Shown here one piece after another: positions 3,334-28,526 of a DNA stretch of 64,000 nucleotides (position 1 is the stretch's first letter; the number at the start of each line of letters is the position of its first letter). Below the pieces are notes generated by a model. The model did not search any database and was not told where the DNA came from. It saw only the letters and a list, made by a program, of their open reading frames with translations. Source of the stretch: a virus (Duplodnaviria > Caudoviricetes); IMG/VR virus record IMGVR_UViG_3300033121_001553, positions 32,001 through 96,000 of that record; one strand, given 5' to 3'. The translations under genes and the position numbers were made by a program.

Positions 3334-4354
3334 CGTCTTCTTCTTCTTTCTTTGGAAAATCAGCGTTGCTGTAGTAACGTCTCGTCAGATCTTCTACGTA
3401 TCGTAGCATTTCATTGCGAATAACATTGCTGTAGATGTCACCGTACGCGTTGCCAACAGCACGCTCAATGTTTTCTGTGACATCATCTTCTAGCTGTTCA
3501 TACGTCATTATCTCTGATAGAAAAGAAAACTGTTGCATTACGTGATACGCGAAGATACTAACGAACCGTACGTAGTCATCAGTCGAATGTTTGTCTGAGA
3601 GTCTCTTGAAAATCTTCGTAATACCGTTCTTGACATTGCTAACGTACTTTTCAATGTTGCGATGCGACAGATCCATACCGGCTGTCGCACGAGAACGAGA
3701 GCGTTCGTCAGCGCCGTACAGCTTCATCAGATAACTTCTAATTTTTTTCGGTAGCTCGCGCATAATGTACCCGGCTTCAATATCGTTGTTCTTCGTATAC
3801 TGACGGGCGAGCACAGAAATATTCGTCAAAATACTGTCGTTTTCTTCTGTAACACTATTAATAACGAATGAGGCTACAACGCTATCCAACGTATAATGAT
3901 CATGATGTTCACGATGCATATCATTGTACACGCTAAGAATCCAGCCCTTCGCGGTCTTAACGAGCTTTTCGTACTCATCTGAGAACAGATACGTTGTGTC
4001 GAATTCATTTAGTAGCATCTCGCTTTGATCAGAGTACGTACTCATGAAATAGAGGATTGACTCTGCTGTCCTTTCAGCAAAGTCAATGTATATGCTGTAT
4101 TCGTGACTGTCGACTTTGCTATCGTGCTCGTAGCACATTTGTATGTACTCGTTTACTGGAAAGCCTGGCATGTAGTACTGCAGCTCTGGACCGAGCATTG
4201 AAACAAAATTATGCCACGTTTTTTTAATAACATCTTCAAGCATCTCGTCAGCTTGCACTGGGTAGGTAATTTTAAACAGCTTAACTGTAGCGTCACCGCT
4301 CAGCATTTTTTTTATTCGCTTGACATGAGACTCATTTGGTTCGTAAAATTTCAT
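3320..4354 (-). CDS. Alpha-helical hypothetical protein (possibly a distant member of the same family)
   Basis: 344-aa ORF of similar size and composition, coupled to neighbours; family motifs not clear. Confidence 0.8.
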   Translation of the reverse strand: MKFYEPNESHVKRIKKMLSGDATVKLFKITYPVQADEMLEDVIKKTWHNFVSMLGPELQYYMPGFPVNEYIQMCYEHDSKVDSHEYSIYIDFAERTAESILYFMSTYSDQSEMLLNEFDTTYLFSDEYEKLVKTAKGWILSVYNDMHREHHDHYTLDSVVASFVINSVTEENDSILTNISVLARQYTKNNDIEAGYIMRELPKKIRSYLMKLYGADERSRSRATAGMDLSHRNIEKYVSNVKNGITKIFKRLSDKHSTDDYVRFVSIFAYHVMQQFSFLSEIMTYEQLEDDVTENIERAVGNAYGDIYSNVIRNEMLRYVEDLTRRYYSNADFPKKEEEDDEAW

Positions 4355-10493: not shown

Positions 10494-10907
10494 TCAACCT
10501 CTAAAACTAACTACAATCGTCGCGCCGTTATCGTCGATACTATGCAATGCAGCATCAATAGGTATACAGCTGTTACATTCGTAAATCACGCTATCTTCAT
10601 TGTACGCGAACAGCACGCTAAACATCTTACCGCTTAGAAATGATTTCACAATTTCAACAGCAGACTCAACACTGTTTATTCTGAAACTGAATTCTAGTTT
10701 CTTTGATGTATTTATCGAAGACGCGTCAAATGAGTCTACGCTTACAGTTACATCGATATCTTCGTTGCTAAATGAAAGAAACGGTCGAAACTTTGCTGTA
10801 ACGCTTAGCTTCGCCGTTTCACGATCAGAGTAGTCAGCTATCTGATCTGCTATTTCTTCTGATGCTAGATAGACTTCGTCTTCATTGTCTTTCGTCAACG
10901 ATCTCAT
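10494..10907 (-). CDS. Hypothetical protein
   Basis: ATG 10907 preferred; the track's TTG start at 10925 is followed by an in-frame TTA. Confidence 0.7.
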   Translation of the reverse strand: MRSLTKDNEDEVYLASEEIADQIADYSDRETAKLSVTAKFRPFLSFSNEDIDVTVSVDSFDASSINTSKKLEFSFRINSVESAVEIVKSFLSGKMFSVLFAYNEDSVIYECNSCIPIDAALHSIDDNGATIVVSFRG

Positions 10908-11232
10908 AAGCGTTGATTGTAACAATTTCTTTGTAAACTTTATCGATATAATTCGTTGCAGTCACAGTTGACTGTTCTGGCTTCGTTCCACTTGGCGCTG
11001 ATGTTCCGACTCTCACGAATACGCTTCTGCCTGCGTAAGTCACTTCTATGTCTGTTGCATCGCGTTGTTCAAATGTTAGCAGCGAAACAATAAATTCATT
11101 TCTTAGTTGAAGATCAGCGAAGTCGTATGTTCGATACATAATCGAATTGCTGACTTCCCACTTTTGCATTGCTGCAATTGGGAATTTCTTAACAGGATTT
11201 TTATTTACTTTTATCGCCGCTACGTTTATCAC
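10882..11232 (-). CDS. Pterin-4a-carbinolamine dehydratase (PCD)-like protein, degenerate
   Basis: KWEV....MYRTYDFAD....EFI pattern and length fit the PCD fold; the catalytic HHP is absent. Confidence 0.5.
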   Translation of the reverse strand: MINVAAIKVNKNPVKKFPIAAMQKWEVSNSIMYRTYDFADLQLRNEFIVSLLTFEQRDATDIEVTYAGRSVFVRVGTSAPSGTKPEQSTVTATNYIDKVYKEIVTINAYEIVDERQ

Positions 11233-11242
11233 AAAATTACCT

Positions 11243-11893
11243 TTATTTTTTCTTTGTGCCCATTGTCAGGTCACCAGGGCCAGTGCCCCAAGCACGTTTT
11301 CCACCAATCGCACCAGATCCGCCACCAAGCTTTAGATCACCAGAAGAAAAACCAGATCCGCCGCCGCCAGTTCCTGCGAATGGACTGCTACCGTGCGCTG
11401 ATGACATCGAACCTCTGAAGCCTTTCACATTTTCGCGTGCAACGAACTTGAATCCTATCTTAAGCAGTTCTGCTTTGATGTCTTTCGTCAATGTTGTTGA
11501 CGCTTTTTCGACATTACGTCCTGCTATAGCTGACTGGTAATTCCTTGCCAACGCTTGGAGCTCAGCAGCGCTGAACTCTTCTTCATCGTTATCAAGCTTG
11601 TAGTTGACAAAATTTTCGAAACTCTCAAATTCAGGCATCGCACGAAGTTCTTCGATCTCTTCATCGAATGCGTTGTCTTCAACTTTGCTGTAGTGCCCGT
11701 GGCTAGCACCGCGTTTGATGCTATGCTTACGCTCAAGCTTATCTTCATCATCTTCAAGGTACTTTAGATCTGTCGGTGTAAGATCTGTAAAACCAGGCGG
11801 TAGATCAAAAAATCCTTTTGGCTTTGGCGTTGCTTCTAGCACAAGAAGATGTTTTACATAGCTTTCGATAAGAAACTTGAAATTTGAATTCAT
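11243..11893 (-). CDS. Hypothetical protein with propeptide-like N-terminus and Gly-rich C-terminus
   Basis: C-terminal half of track ORF 11243..12724. Has its own ATG (MNSNFKFLIESYVKHLLVLE) after TATTTA and is separated from the nitrilase by four in-frame TTA codons. Confidence 0.75.
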   Translation of the reverse strand: MNSNFKFLIESYVKHLLVLEATPKPKGFFDLPPGFTDLTPTDLKYLEDDEDKLERKHSIKRGASHGHYSKVEDNAFDEEIEELRAMPEFESFENFVNYKLDNDEEEFSAAELQALARNYQSAIAGRNVEKASTTLTKDIKAELLKIGFKFVARENVKGFRGSMSSAHGSSPFAGTGGGGSGFSSGDLKLGGGSGAIGGKRAWGTGPGDLTMGTKKK

Positions 11894-11977
11894 AGCGCAT
11901 GCATAAATACACATCGCTAAGCAAGTTAATACTACGAATATCTCTAATCTAACTCCCCGTCTCAGATGAGGATTTAG

Positions 11978-12724
11978 TAAAACTTTAACAAGAAGTATCG
12001 ACTGTGATGAGTCTGACGTTGACTGAACATTTAGTCTTCTGTCAATAATCGTGCTGCTTCCAAAACAGTCTTCTCCTTCGTTAACGTTTCCTATTCTATT
12101 TGCAACGATAACAGCAGCGTCGAGTTCTTCTGCGAGTTGTATCCACTCATCTAGCGGACCAGCTGTTTTACCAGTTGCAGAACATGGTACGGCAACGATA
12201 TCAACAGAACCCTTCTTATAGAATTGAACATTTCGTTTGCCGTAGAACGGATGCGATTCACGGTAAAGATTTCTGCTATCACCAGAGATAAGCAAACCAA
12301 CTCGACCAAACGGCGTCATCGCAACTGGTGAAGGATCATCGCCAGGCATCGCCCAAACATGCTCATTACGATGAAGATTGTGTTTACGTGTTTTTGCTAC
12401 AATACTTCCCGCTGGATCAACGAGAGCTGCTGAGTCGTATATACCTCCCTCATTCAGCTCTACGTATCCAAACGCGATATAGCACGCGTTGTCTAGCGCA
12501 AGCTCAGATATGAACTGCAGCTCGCTGCTATCGCTCGTTTGCGCGTGTTCTATCGCTTCGTCTATGGTTGAGATCTTGCTACCGTTGAACGAACGTTCTG
12601 GCAAAACGATGAGCTTTGCGCCGCCAAGCGCAGCAGCACGAACCATCGCTGCGATCTTTTTCTTCATTTGATCTTGCGACTTCTCATCCCTATACTGCAG
12701 CGCAGCTACTTTCACAGAGCTCAT
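11978..12724 (-). CDS. Carbon-nitrogen hydrolase (nitrilase superfamily)
   Basis: KVAALQ, AKLIVLPE, RKHNL, GRVGLLISGD, VANRIG and FGSSTIID motifs. Domain ends ILLVKV, then TTA at 11978-11980. Confidence 0.85.
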
Positions 12725-12728
12725 CGTT

Positions 12729-13394
12729 TTATACTCCTATTTGTAATACAGCACCACGTGCAATGTCGCTCTTAAGTCTTGACATATCGCGTGGAGAAGC
12801 TGTGTATCCAAGCATATCAGCCTTCTTACGACCAATAGACTTTGCATCTTTTACTACCTGATCAGCAAGCTCTTCCCACGTTTCATCTTCGCTTGGGCCT
12901 TGGCGCATGTAGAAATCATTGAAGGCAGCTGATGTTGCCATAACTTCAGACTGATTTTCGATAAGAAAATTTATTTCATCGTCAGTTGGCGGATCTTCGC
13001 TTGACTTAAGCATCGACAGATAGTCAAAAAATGCTTCATCAAGTATGTCTTTGATCTTCTCGATATGCTCTTCTGTGATTCCAAGAAATACATACGGATT
13101 GTTAAGCTTCTCAAGCGTTACGAATTCGATCCTCTTAACGCCGCTAACTGTTAGGCCAAGCGCATCAGCAACGTCTTCAAGCTTTTTGCCGCCTTCAAGC
13201 GATCTGTAACGACGTCTCTCAGCGTCTTCCTGATCATCTTCAAGCTCATCTTCACGTGTCCAACGACCGCCTGGCGCGTATGTATCGTCGATCTCGTTTA
13301 GTCTCTGTGACTTTTTGTTTGCAGCTTCAGCAAGCTTTCTGCTGATTATCTTGCGTACTTGTGAACGAATGACTTTTTCTAGTTGCTTATCCAT
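12729..13394 (-). CDS. Propeptide-bearing protein with sigma-70 region-4-like HTH
   Basis: KKLEDVADALGLTVSGVKRIEFVTLEKL matches the region 4.2 HTH pattern; N-terminus MDKQLEKVIRSQVRKII..KLAE. Confidence 0.6.
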   Translation of the reverse strand: MDKQLEKVIRSQVRKIISRKLAEAANKKSQRLNEIDDTYAPGGRWTREDELEDDQEDAERRRYRSLEGGKKLEDVADALGLTVSGVKRIEFVTLEKLNNPYVFLGITEEHIEKIKDILDEAFFDYLSMLKSSEDPPTDDEINFLIENQSEVMATSAAFNDFYMRQGPSEDETWEELADQVVKDAKSIGRKKADMLGYTASPRDMSRLKSDIARGAVLQIGV

Positions 13395-22663: not shown

Positions 22664-23224
22664 CTATACATCTGTTATGTAACTCGACCATGACTCGTGC
22701 CATCCATGCACATCTGATCTACGCACGTATTTGCTTATGAAATGATAACGATCAGGAATCTTTGGCTTCGCGAACTTCATCGTGAGACCTGATTCTTCGA
22801 GTGTGCTTGCCCCTTTCTTCGCATTGCATGGCAGGCAAGAAGTAATACAGTTCAGCCATGAATTTTCCCCGCCAAGCGAACGAGGTTTTATATGGTCAAT
22901 TGTAGCTGACTTACTATTCACTGGATCACCACAGTAAGCGCATCTCCACTTGTCTCTGTTGAAAATAACATTTTTACTGAACTGTAGTCTTGACGGCATG
23001 AATCTGCTTCTGTCTTCTCTTAGGCGCAAGACAGCTGGCAAAACGTGCTTCGAACCTTTAGACGGCCATGTGTCTATCAAGTCAACGACACCACGTCTAT
23101 GCAAGCTTATAGCTCTCTGGTACGATACAAATCGTAGCGGTCTCCACGCTGTATCAAGCAACAAACAGTCATTCTCGTAATTCGTTTTATTTCTTTTTGA
23201 CATCGTCGTGCGCTCCCGTAGCAT
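22664..23224 (-). CDS. HNH endonuclease (McrA-like)
   Basis: RDKWRCAYCG, TIDHIKPRSLGG, W.NCITSCLPCNAKKG motifs. Confidence 0.92.
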   Translation of the reverse strand: MLRERTTMSKRNKTNYENDCLLLDTAWRPLRFVSYQRAISLHRRGVVDLIDTWPSKGSKHVLPAVLRLREDRSRFMPSRLQFSKNVIFNRDKWRCAYCGDPVNSKSATIDHIKPRSLGGENSWLNCITSCLPCNAKKGASTLEESGLTMKFAKPKIPDRYHFISKYVRRSDVHGWHESWSSYITDV

Positions 23225-23226
23225 TT

Positions 23227-26200
23227 TAACACAAGTCGTCTTGTTTTGTACGCTGATGTGCTGATGCCTCTTTCATCTCTTGCAAGTTCTGCGATATAGA
23301 TTGAGCCAACTGTTATGGTCTCTGTTGGCTTTAGTCCCCAACAGAAAAATCTTTGAACAATTCCTGCATAACCCAACCCATCAATAACAGCAAAATCTTT
23401 ACCTGTTTTTGTCTTTTTTACACGTACTTCTGTCGTCAGAAACCAGCATAGCCTTGTCTCACCAATCTGCAAATCATCGATAGACAGTATACCACGTTGT
23501 TCCAGTCTCTCTTGGATATGCGATGGTATAAGCTGATTTGTATCGAACTTCCCAAGTAGCTCTGTCATATGCTCGATTTTTTCTGGAATGCTCCAGTCTT
23601 CATCAGACTGACTTACCATCAAATCGACGAGCATGTTCTTACCATTCTTCTTTTTTAGCTTATCGTAGTTACCGATTATGATGCTATGCATAGAAGCGTA
23701 CGACTTGAATGCGCACGGATCGCTACTATCAACAATTTTCATTGACTCAAAAGCGCCAACTTTGATCAAATTCTCGAACACTCTTTTGTTGAACTTGCTG
23801 TGTTTCCATGTACCATCATCGTTCCACAGCAACTCAAAAAGAGAGTTATAGGGTCGATTTTCCAGTATCTCTTCGATAGCTGCTGAGCCGACACCCTTTA
23901 CTGTTTTAAACGATGGAATAAGTAGCTTTTCGTCGTGTGAGCTCACGCTCCACTCTGCTGTAGACTCGTTGATATCAACACTACCGATCTTGTAGCCAAG
24001 CGAACGTATCTCGTTCATTGCTACGATGCGTGACTCTGGATCTCCAAGCATTGTTTCTGCGTACGCGCACAGCCACTCGGGCGCGTAGTACGTCAGTAGA
24101 TACGCGCACATATACGAGTCAACTGAGTACGCGACTGCATGCGATGAGTTGAACGCGTAGCTTGCGAACGCCGCCAAGTCATCGAAGAGTCTACGTGCCT
24201 TGTCTTCAGCGAGACCATTCGCAACAGCACCAGTGATAAACTTCTCTTCGAGGATCTGAATTGCCGACTTTTGTCCACTTTGACCAGAAACGCTGCGCTT
24301 CAAAATATTCTTGCGAAGCTTATCGCAGTCATCTTCGTTCATGCCTGATAGCTCAGCTGCTAGCTGCATGAGCTGCTCTTGAAATATGCAGAAACCATAC
24401 GTTTTACCGAGTACTTTTTCTATCGCAGGATGATCGTACTTCTTGACAAAGCCAGCTTCAGCAGCGTTCTTTGCCTCGATGTACTTCTTATCAACATCAG
24501 CCGCGAGCGGACCGGGCCTGTAGATCGACGTTGCAACAGATAGGTCATATATGCTACGCGGCTTGAAGTTCATGATGAAACGCTGCGTATGCTTCGCTGT
24601 AAATTGAAATATGCCAGCGAAGTTACCGTTGTGAAACACGTTTTCGTAAACATGCTGATCGTCCATCGCATTCACGTCTGGATGCAACGTTTCTTCGATC
24701 CACTTTTTGACGTTCGGCCATGAAACATGAACGTACCCATGACGACGTTTCAATATGAGTTCAACTGCACGCTCAATGATACGCAACGTTTCAAGACCAA
24801 GAAGATCGAACTTAATGAGCCCGTAGACCTCGAGATCTTTTCTATTCATGCCCTCTGTCCACGGCGTACGCAGCTCGCCTTGAGCAGCTATGATCGGCAT
24901 CGCTCTGTCAGCATCTTCAGTTACAATCACACCGCCAGCATGCTTACCGATGCTACGTAGCTGCCTGTACAAGATTCTCGTAGGCGACTCAATCTGCGGG
25001 TACTTTTCGATAAAGGTACGAAACTTATCGCTATACTTCATGCAGTCGTCGAACTTTAGCATGAAGAGCGACTTGTTTTCGCCGTCTGGCATAGCCTTCG
25101 GTCTGACTTCTTCGTCAAGAAAACGTGTTGCTTCGTTAACTTCAGCAAAGTCAATCCCGTAAAATCGTGAGATGTCTTTCACCAGAGACTTAAGCTGCAG
25201 CGTGTTGTAGTTGACAATCGGATAAACATTTTCGTTACCAAACTGCTCACGCATCATCTCGATCAACGTTTCTCTGTTTGAAACGTCTGTGTCAACGTCT
25301 GGTGGATCCTTACGAGATGCACTAATGAATCTGCTGAACAGTAGATTATGCTTCAGTGGATCAAGCTGCGTTATTCCAAGTATGTAGTTCACAAGTGAAC
25401 CACAACCAGATCCACGCCCTGGTCCAACGAGTCCAACGCCGTCTGCAATATCGATGATCGACTTCATCGTAATGAAGTAAAGTGAGAAGTCTTTCTCGCG
25501 AATCATCTTTAGTTCTGTCTTAAGCCTATCGATGTACTCAGGCTTGTCTTGTATCTTGCGTTTCTTCATGCCAGCTTTGCACAGTTCGACAAGATAACCG
25601 AACGGATCCATGCCAGCTGGCACCAAAAAACGTGGCAACTTCATCGTTGTATCTGGTTGCACATCTCCTATCATTTCATGAGCTATGCTCCACGTATCTT
25701 CTATCGCTTTTGAGATGACATCATCTTCGTAAAACGACATACCATCGCAGTAGTCTTTATAAGACCGCCACATCTGCTCAGCGTTCTTCGGATAAAGCTC
25801 GCACTTGAGAGCAGACTGATCTTGCGGTAGCATTGACGGATCTATCTGCTCGTAGTTAAGCCGTCCAAGACGTTTGTAAAGCTCACGCTCTCTCCACAGC
25901 TCAGGTCTGCAGTAGTGTGAGTCTGCTGTCGCGATTGGGCTTAGACCATTACGTTTGCAAAATTCAAGCAAAGCTCTGTTAACGAGATGCTGTTCTTCGA
26001 GTTTGTTGAACTGAATCTCGTGAAATACGTTCTCAGCGCCAACAGCGTCTACAAGCTGATCGTGCGTATTACCGATCGCACGAAGAACTTTTTCCATCTT
26101 CGTTGGATCATCTAGCACTTTCCAGTTAAGCTGACTCTTATCTAGATCTGAGAGCGAATAGAAAGTATCGTACGCAAAAGGTCCACCGATGCAAGCTGAA

Positions 26201-26963: not shown

Positions 26964-27283
26964 GTTTTTCTCAGACGGTTAAAAAATCTCTCAGCAGAAC
27001 GCATCGCGTGTTTGATGTACGCAGATCCAGTTGGATTCGAAGAGTGAACATCCCACTCTGGAAATCCATTTAGCTTTCCAAGAGCAGCGAGCTTTTCTAT
27101 GTAACACGCGACAACATAACCGCTTGCTGACTTTTCACCGAGATCGTGATCGAAAGAGATGTGTGTTACATCACCGCGTTTGATCAGTCTACAAGCTTGC
27201 AGCGCAGTTTCGCAGCCGATCCATCCAGCCGGTGTTCTACGATCGCAGTCTTCGTTGCACTTATCATCAAGCCAGACTTTCAT
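26960..27283 (-). CDS. Cyclic-phosphate-processing receiver-like (cREC) domain protein
   Basis: VWLDD...R.PAGW, ISFDHDLG, GY and HSSNPTG motifs; ATG 27283. Confidence 0.75.
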   Translation of the reverse strand: MKVWLDDKCNEDCDRRTPAGWIGCETALQACRLIKRGDVTHISFDHDLGEKSASGYVVACYIEKLAALGKLNGFPEWDVHSSNPTGSAYIKHAMRSAERFFNRLRKT

Positions 27284-27683
27284 TTTTAACCTCGGCGGGA
27301 GCAAAGCAGAATTGCTTTCCGCAGCTGAAGCATGAAATCGTGAAGTGTTCGAACGGGTGCAGTTCGCATTTCTTTACGATCATGTTTTTCTTTATGACGA
27401 AAATCGTTTCAAGACCGCAAAACTTGCATGTGAATTTGTGCGTATATCCGTCTTCCGTGCATCGCATTCGGTATTTGTTGATCGGCAACAAATTGTTGCG
27501 CTGCGCTTCGAGGTCACGTTTTTCAGATGTTCTGTACGTTTCTCTGCACGTTTCCGGAAACCCCTTTGCATCATCGTCTTTACTTTTGAACTTCGATTGT
27601 ACGCACGTAGTCAAAAGTACAACCACAGTCATCGCCCAAGGAAGAAACAACAAAACGATGAAGGTCATTTTATCGATCGACAT
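27267..27683 (-). CDS. Membrane-anchored zinc-finger-like hypothetical protein
   Basis: C-terminal part of track ORF 27267..28526. Has its own ATG, an N-terminal TM, and CKFC and CFSC motifs. Confidence 0.7.
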   Translation of the reverse strand: MSIDKMTFIVLLFLPWAMTVVVLLTTCVQSKFKSKDDDAKGFPETCRETYRTSEKRDLEAQRNNLLPINKYRMRCTEDGYTHKFTCKFCGLETIFVIKKNMIVKKCELHPFEHFTISCFSCGKQFCFAPAEVKNESLA

Positions 27684-27698
27684 GATCAAATTTGCGCG

Positions 27699-28526
27699 TA
27701 ATATCTCAAACACAAACTGCACTTTTGGATCACCGTAGTCAGCGTCACCAACGTTCACAAGTACATTCTTCATTTCAAGATGCCTGCATCGACCATGCGT
27801 ATGACCGCTGTATATCTCGAACAGAACATTTTCGTGTTCTTCGGCACGTTCGGATATGAGAGCGCCAAGCGAAGCATTACAGTACCATGGAAGAAATCCA
27901 GTACCTGACTTCGTTCCTCTGTACATACAAGCATCAACGTAAGGCGGCACATGCGTAGCGATGATGATTTTTTTCGCACCATCAGCAAGCGCTGTATCAA
28001 TTTTATTGATAAGCGCATTGTTATCATCACGCGCTATTTGCTTCGCGCATCGAGCGACAACATCTTTCATTGTGTTAAGAATCTGCGGCGACAGCACACC
28101 GCCTGTCGTCATCATGAATTCTTCTATTGAACGCCAGTCGTTCATGACAAAGTTAGCTGCGTTGTAGTTACCAGCCAACGTATCGTACCAGCCGTCGCAT
28201 CCAACAAGCGCAACATCACCAAAACGTATTGGCGTAGACTGCGTTAGATAAACAAGATCTTCCAGCTTCGACAACGCAGGAAAAACTTTTTTACGCATCT
28301 GTTTGATGCTGCCACCGTAGTAGTCGTGGTTGCCAGCAACGTAATAAATCGGCAGCAATGTCAGCTGCTGTAGTTGCGTTAGATGACTAGCGAAGTCTAT
28401 CGAGTTTGAGATATCGCCCGTGAGCAACACAGCATCAGCGTCTTCACACGATATGCGAGACGCCAGCTTAAGTGCGCAGTCACGGGCACTATCGAGGTGA
28501 ACATCGGTGCACCATGCTATCTTCAT
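27699..28526 (-). CDS. Calcineurin-like metallophosphoesterase
   Basis: TDVH, TGDI, GNHD, THVPP and GHTH motifs. Domain ends QFVFEI, then TTA at 27699-27701. Confidence 0.9.

Follow-up and report, generated by a model that had tools for sequence, protein, structure and literature searches.

A nitrilase–gene 2 reading frame split at TTA, a probable fourth stop in a clade of large tailed phages

Phages that recode stop codons (e.g. crAss-like phages) read TAG or TGA as an amino acid. In Streptomyces, the rare TTA codon is decoded as leucine (Leu), and expression of the genes that contain it hinges on one transfer RNA (tRNA), bldA. T4-type phages carry modular gene cassettes in hyperplastic regions. 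In the literature, we found a change of UUA from sense to stop published only for organelles and no phage or bacterial case. It is described for labyrinthulean mitochondria (NCBI table 23), where the stop codons of the Schizochytrium mitogenome are TAA, TGA or TTA (PMC7799850). Here we analyse a 493-codon open reading frame (ORF) in the tailed-phage record IMGVR_UViG_3300033121_001553 (186.8 kb, 43% guanine plus cytosine (GC) and 52% complete), of which the 64,000 nucleotides (nt) at bases 32001–96000 are hereafter called the window. The ORF begins with a CN-hydrolase of the nitrilase superfamily (gene 1) and ends with a 216-amino-acid (aa) protein of a phage family without assigned function (gene 2). 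Our results suggest that (i) this ORF is very probably an artefact of the standard bacterial code (table 11) that joins two independent genes, the first of which ends at UUA codon 249; and (ii) TTA (UUA) is probably a genuine fourth stop in a clade of large phages from wastewater and estuaries, i.e. a sense-to-stop change outside organelles.

The ORF lies at 11243..12724 of the window on the minus strand and runs from an ATG at 12724 to a TAA at 11245–11243 without any in-frame TAA, TAG or TGA. Its four TTAs are codons 249 (11980–11978), 260 (11947–11945), 266 (11929–11927) and 269 (11920–11918), all of which are confined to a 29-codon linker, with none in codons 1–248 or 278–493. If TTA were evenly spread, four out of four would fall within 29 of 493 codons with a chance of ~1e-5. 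A 28-codon spacer free of canonical stops, estimated from base composition, has a chance of about 0.19; the stop-free spacer is not unusual in itself, and the TTA distribution is the non-random part. The apparent fusion of nitrilase and gene 2 would therefore be an accident of frame. Past the nitrilase domain the frame reads GTT TTA CTA AAT ... AGA TTA ... GTA TTA ACT TGC TTA GCG ATG, and TTA269 is followed by GCG ATG TGT ATT TAT GCA TGC GCT ATG, the last ATG being that at 11893. An earlier note on this DNA had pointed out the 493-aa ORF without canonical stops, the four TTAs in ~29 codons, a TATTTA motif and the ATG at 11893, all of which we verified in the sequence.

Contigs of four public runs were mapped on the locus, and the window linker was confirmed in three studies. 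An assembly error is ruled out, since run contigs of several studies have an identical linker; records of the 493-aa protein come from at least five contigs. The metatranscriptome runs that bear the locus consist of contigs only, of some tens of kb, and give no indicator of transcription or translation. Searches of the GenBank phage collection (blastn and tblastn) gave no match to the locus, and the nitrilase half, scanned against IMG/VR viral contigs, gave no relative.

The linker measures 84, 78 or 73 nt in near-identical strains, and TTA249 is kept in all four linker versions (i.e. the window, L001, L014/L015 and the strain of run X16). L014 (from a 171-kb Joint Genome Institute (JGI) contig) and L015 (from Logan) match the window at 98.5% identity over 3.9 kb and carry an 11-nt spacer deletion that places gene 2 at +1 relative to gene 1; TTA249 and gene 2 are intact, and read with table 11, gene 1 would gain 54 junk residues in an extension that overlaps gene 2. 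The X16 strain differs from the window at 18 positions over 3 kb and has a linker 11 nt shorter, with the two genes out of frame; seven of these 18 substitutions, and all four indels of the 3 kb, fall within 11914–11958. Read with the standard code, the nitrilase product would differ between all three strain groups, whereas a TTA stop would give one 248-aa protein in all of them. In the 90%-identity protein cluster of the ORF, 493-aa, 491-aa and 302-aa “amidohydrolase” forms stand beside separate 216-aa proteins (on up to eight contigs); the pair of 302 aa and 216 aa, recorded from several contigs, is what table 11 makes of the out-of-frame strains.

These strains bear directly on a genuine bifunctional fusion, in which TTA would simply be a very rare codon for Leu, with the 29 residues as a flexible linker. 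Two strain groups have open frames of 493 and 491 codons, and the gene 2 module is truly fused to DnaJ and WGR domains in other phages, as such a protein would lead one to expect. However, a conserved functional fusion is excluded because the two genes of L014 and L015 lie in different frames, with TTA249 and gene 2 both preserved. A full-length fusion conserved among relatives, with linker codons other than TTA, was sought and not found; the close strains are out of frame and keep TTA249. The bifunctional protein is thus largely refuted by L014 and L015. Codon usage in the linker is also that of non-coding DNA, indels there break the frame, each half is a complete member of its family with an end or a start of its own, and two equally rare codons lack the bias of TTA towards ORF ends (see below). 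We consider this explanation very improbable.

On family alignments, residues 1–248 are a complete nitrilase-superfamily protein. The Pfam family PF00795 is matched with 89.6 bits (gathering cut-off 23.2), with residues 5–245 covering profile positions 1–243 of 256, and a Shine–Dalgarno sequence (AGGAG) lies 5' of the ATG at 12724. With the first 248 residues as query, 18 stand-alone homologs of 250–259 aa were found (37–45% identity, E ≤ 1.6e-35); the homolog ends all lie 0–2 residues from window codon 249 in a 14-sequence alignment and at 249–253 in a crude projection of all 18. Three syntenic, standard-code relatives (L006, L008 and L009) have the order Sod_Fe_C ... nitrilase – Pterin_4a-like gene. 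Their nitrilase stops at TAA or TGA, 0–2 codons from the position of TTA249, the Pterin_4a-like gene follows directly and TTA is common inside their genes. L009, for example, reads GTT TTA CTG TGA where the window reads GTT TTA CTA AAT.

Residues 278–493 are, by the same kind of comparison, a complete family member with its own start. An exhaustive search from M278 gave 87 cluster representatives, most of them stand-alone proteins of 150–280 aa with the module at the C-terminus, and the N-terminal start of the family (M...LL(R/K)E(F/Y)I...LxEA) aligns with M278. The closest homolog, P0009, is a stand-alone protein of 219 aa with 64% identity over residues 1–216; its gene in L005 is preceded by a plainly intergenic region, and the sequence just 5' of its ATG is shared with the window linker. 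Moreover, a 216-aa protein identical to gene 2 is annotated as a separate gene on eight contigs, and the codon-usage log-odds of gene 2 are +0.66 bits per codon. The earlier note had read the fusion as two genes and proposed looking for the halves as separate genes in relatives. That reading stands: the CN-hydrolases end beside codon 249, the gene 2 family is mostly stand-alone and strains at 98.5% identity are frame-shifted.

Translational bypassing of the T4 gene 60 type, with take-off near codon 248 and landing near the gene 2 start, would be independent of frame and would accept spacers of 84, 78 or 73 nt; the phage also has a T4-like feature, a gp21-type prohead protease gene (Peptidase_S77, 76.8 bits; genome 103776–104291, outside the window). 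However, no GTT adjoins the ATG at 11893 to match the take-off codon GTT248, relatives of gene 2 stand alone with a Met start and the nitrilase family ends at the take-off point. Bypassing can hardly be credited at all.

The spacer between the two genes has no counterpart in the CN-hydrolase or gene 2 family. Its codon-usage log-odds (TTA excluded) are −0.10 bits per codon compared to 0.454 ± 0.192 for gene bodies, and only 0.26% of 28-codon gene-body windows are as low. We also compared the window with L001, which is 94% identical (protein P0001). In the first ~45 nt of the linker, 10 of 40 positions are identical and there are +1 and −7 nt indels, whereas 32 of the last 36 nt before the gene 2 ATG are identical. 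Synonymous and non-synonymous codon differences number 49:7 in gene 1 and 32:6 in gene 2, and by these ratios both coding parts are under strong purifying selection. At least four versions of the spacer core occur in strains whose identity elsewhere is 94% to >99%. This change is far above that of flanking synonymous sites, and the core resembles a hot spot of recombination or indels at a cassette junction.

TTA was also counted genome-wide, in 174 ORFs of at least 80 aa called with table 11 (58.6 k codons). It occurs 90 times in frame, compared to 1466 and 657 times in frames 2 and 3. Avoidance of TTA as a restriction site or through base composition is ruled out, as the depletion is limited to one frame. 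Thirty-nine of the 90 in-frame TTAs (43%) lie within the last 10 codons of ORFs, where 3% of all codons and 7.6% of the next most skewed codon are found; codons as rare as TTA (CGG and TCC) have no such end-of-ORF bias. Most of those outside the last 10 codons lie upstream of likely true starts, and 17 of the 90 are in the first 30 codons of table-11 ORFs. Between TTA and the canonical stop of 52 other ORFs lie 655 codons with a score of −0.05 bits per codon, against +0.43 for an equal number of codons just before TTA and +0.39 for the last 10 codons of TTA-free ORFs. The mean tail after TTA is ~12.6 codons, which is the expectation for random sequence up to a chance stop, and gene-start signals follow TTAs at normal spacing (TTATG overlaps included). 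ORFs that close at TTA number 55 of 174, and table 11 would thus extend or fuse about three in ten ORFs of this phage. The comparisons at the locus and across the genome show that the predicted coding frame ends at TTA in both, and that the two halves of the 493-codon ORF need not share a frame.

Near absence of TTA from coding sequence is a feature shared with the bldA system of Streptomyces. There, however, the genome is GC-rich so that TTA is rare by composition, and the TTAs lie inside genes; here GC is 43%, the other frames are rich in TTA and the in-frame TTAs lie at gene ends before non-coding sequence.

The earlier note had called the nitrilase locus the cleanest single-locus test of TTA termination. 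This is fair as a description, but two more stop-less TTA loci exist, i.e. 27267..28526 of the window and a 1127-codon ORF outside it. At 27267..28526 (minus strand), a stop-less 419-codon ORF has TTA at codon 276, and its first 275 aa form a metallophosphoesterase; in 118 of the 119 homologs of this part the projected end is residue 275–276, next to TTA276, and an in-frame ATG six codons past TTA276 opens a 138-aa ORF without a family match. Elsewhere in the window (23107–23229, minus strand), a 1209-codon ORF has TTA at codon 1170, and the ATG of the next gene (23224) lies 2 nt downstream; read by table 11, the two would overlap by 118 nt.

Among the relatives, the 277-kb contig behind L005 has the same end-of-ORF TTA pattern, which is absent from L006, L008 and L009, the more distant ones, so the trait belongs to a sub-lineage. 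As in labyrinthulean mitochondria, TTA closes genes beside the canonical stops and is absent from gene bodies. By contrast, the mitochondrial genomes are small organellar ones with a reduced translation system, whereas this is a tailed phage of >187 kb that uses bacterial ribosomes, and phage relatives at about 40% protein identity still read TTA as Leu. The likeness to stop-recoding phages is that the departure from the code is lineage-specific and that standard gene callers give wrong models; the present phage also carries a tRNA with a CUA anticodon and rarely uses TAG. The direction is the opposite: in those phages a stop becomes sense and table 11 splits genes, whereas here sense would become stop and table 11 extends or fuses them. 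The CUA-anticodon tRNA (amber-suppressor type; tRNA-Pyl according to ARAGORN) lies at genome 154237–154308, outside the window. Canonical stops in the 174 ORFs are TGA (109), TAA (51) and TAG (14), the last being the rarest.

We propose the following sequence of events at the locus. Translation of the nitrilase would end at UUA codon 249. An untranslated spacer of 84 nt would follow, with a hypervariable 5' half and a last 36 nt that form a conserved leader with a hairpin, and gene 2 (11893 to 11246, 216 aa) would initiate at its own AUG. The gene 2 cassette would have been inserted between the nitrilase and the Pterin_4a-like gene so as to leave no canonical stop in the nitrilase frame, a loss that was tolerated because UUA already terminates. 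Release at UUA would be carried out by a release-factor-type activity with altered codon recognition, and the infected cell would presumably contain no tRNA-Leu that reads UUA.

Several points weigh against this proposal: (i) the two genes share a frame in two of the three length classes of the linker (net indels 0 and −6 nt), which could hint at tolerated or useful read-through; (ii) true fusions of the gene 2 module, to DnaJ and WGR, exist in standard-code phages, so that a fusion architecture is possible in principle; (iii) no Shine–Dalgarno sequence precedes gene 2; (iv) a search of the 52%-complete record for RF-1/PCRF domains gave none above the cut-off; and (v) termination at UUA is deduced from sequence alone. 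An 18-bit PCRF match in a 712-aa frame is probably spurious.

The first of these points would suit a conditional or leaky stop, where UUA mostly terminates, or does so only after the phage removes the UUA-reading tRNA-Leu; strains of the window and L001 types would then also make a minor 493- or 491-aa fusion. No in-frame canonical stop backs up the TTAs, and three extra TTAs occur in 28 codons where about 0.4–0.7 would be expected from out-of-frame and post-TTA densities. These extra in-frame TTAs may be back-up terminators, which is only suggestive; they look like back-ups, and as such they would matter only if a single UUA leaks. On the other side, four successive TTAs would cut any leak to very little, the fusion is dispensable (L014 and L015 are out of frame), the linker is without coding constraint and the in-frame state is a one-in-three chance per independent indel history. 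We judge a conditional or leaky stop, with a minor fusion product in the in-frame strains, to be unlikely.

The main mechanistic rival concerns how the peptide is released. UUA could be an unassigned codon without a tRNA, at which stalled ribosomes are freed by transfer-messenger RNA (tmRNA), ArfA/RF2, ArfB or peptidyl-tRNA drop-off; the gene structure would be as in the proposed two-gene arrangement and only the release mechanism would differ. No dedicated release factor was found in the 52%-complete record, and none of the 12 phage tRNAs is a tRNA-Leu. T4 infection cleaves a host leucine tRNA, which is a precedent for phage-induced loss of one tRNA-Leu isoacceptor. However, with 55 of 174 ORFs ending at TTA, rescue is a poor fit as a routine form of termination. 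Products rescued by tmRNA are tagged for degradation, the known rescue factors work at truncated mRNA ends, and the TTATG overlaps suggest ordinary coupling of termination and reinitiation. We rate the unassigned codon lower than true termination and regard it as rather doubtful.

If UUA is indeed a stop on bacterial ribosomes in this phage, more is needed than current knowledge of release factors RF1 and RF2 supplies; candidate explanations are an altered release factor, a factor of the phage or the removal of one tRNA-Leu. The nitrilase locus is suited to such work. With no canonical stop in the next 245 codons, termination of the nitrilase here would depend solely on UUA. A 1.5-kb fragment predicts a 55-kDa protein under the standard code, as against proteins of 27 kDa and 24 kDa under the phage code. 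Together with its natural in-frame and out-of-frame variants, the locus would make a ready-made reporter for UUA termination and its factor, with the frame-shifted strain as a natural control. Public databases already contain false models of gene 1, i.e. the “amidohydrolases” of 493, 491 and 302 aa. The coordinates of the locus are collected in Table 1.

Table 1. Features of the nitrilase–gene 2 locus in the window (predicted from sequence).
Feature	Position	Strand	Details
Gene 1, CN-hydrolase (nitrilase superfamily)	11978..12724	−	248 sense codons (12724 to 11981) + TTA codon 249; PF00795
TTA codon 249, putative terminator of gene 1	11978..11980	−	kept in all four linker versions; aligns with family C-terminal residues
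Putative untranslated spacer, 84 nt	11894..11977	−	three more gene-1-frame TTAs (11945–11947, 11927–11929, 11918–11920)
Hypervariable spacer core	11932..11958	−	window and L001 unalignable; 11-nt deletion in L014/L015
Conserved gene 2 leader	11893..11929	−	36 nt (11894–11929) + A of start codon (11893); hairpin 11893–11919
Gene 2, 216 aa, phage family without assigned function	11243..11893	−	stop TAA 11245–11243; own ATG 11893 (M278 of the ORF)
Next gene, 116 aa, Pterin_4a-like homolog	10882..11232	−	blastp to 124-aa L009 protein, E = 7.6e-7

Gene 2 can be regarded as an inserted cassette, because in relatives the nitrilase runs straight into the Pterin_4a-like gene and the gene 2 family is mostly stand-alone. 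As in T4-type cassettes, a small gene with a conserved leader and hairpin sits between conserved neighbours, next to a variable, recombination-prone junction. Unlike them, the gene 2 leader has no early-promoter consensus, and its motif is unique in the genome; no promoter class can be assigned to it. A scan of 11700–12200 found no sigma-70 promoter or intrinsic terminator, and Rfam gave only a chance long non-coding RNA match in the same interval (E = 0.28). The T4 late-promoter motif TATAAATA has one occurrence in 187 kb; late transcription signals must therefore differ from those of T4, despite the T4 gp21-type protease.

The predicted hairpin abuts the gene 2 start codon. Its L001 counterpart is at 3800–3826 in a shifted register, and the 100-nt L001 stretch that bears it (3735–3834) has z = −3.0. 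The hairpin ends (AGCG...GCGCU) recur in L005, where the leader is recognisable 5' of the stand-alone homolog.

Gene 2 itself has no Pfam or PHROG match. Its AlphaFold model has a mean predicted local distance difference test (pLDDT) score of 71, with core residues 65–155 above 90; Foldseek found no neighbour of this model in BFVD and PDB, and the ESM Atlas gave no usable match. The earlier note had described the start of gene 2 as propeptide-like; a capsid-targeting propeptide of a T4-type internal head protein would be an N-terminal helix with L/I-x-E cleavage motifs, in a genome with a T4-type prohead protease. LIE (residues 9–11) and VLE (residues 18–20) lie within a predicted N-terminal helix (3–21), and the Peptidase_S77 gene is present. 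The idea of a capsid-targeting role is not strengthened, because this N-terminal motif is in no other ORF of the genome. The C-terminal ~170 aa (helical core, Gly-rich tail and basic end) are also the C-terminus of DnaJ + WGR proteins of 527–564 aa (L011 5001–6584 and L012 5001–6596) in large phages that read TTA as Leu. On these comparisons, the C-terminal part of gene 2 is a portable module without a structural neighbour.

Gene 1 departs from the catalytic Glu-Lys-Cys triad of the CN-hydrolase superfamily in an alignment with 13 homologs. E43 and K114 are invariant, and the Cys position, which is C in 13 of 13 homologs, is Ser147 (codon 147, window 12284–12286); the motif reads LLISGD in the window and LICRD in the homologs, and P0001 also has Ser. 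This suggests that gene 1 may encode a pseudo-enzyme or a Ser-nucleophile variant, maintained under purifying selection. CN-hydrolase matches of 557–615 aa are bacterial double-nitrilase proteins and have no bearing on the fusion question.

Codon 217 of the 221 in the gene upstream of the nitrilase (12729..13394) is TTA (12744–12746, minus strand), directly followed by the nitrilase AGGAG; in L001, the TTA of this gene is directly followed by TAG. In run X7, 89 nt at 12883–12973, a variable segment of the same 221-codon gene, are swapped for 98 unrelated letters, a net change of +9 that keeps the frame.

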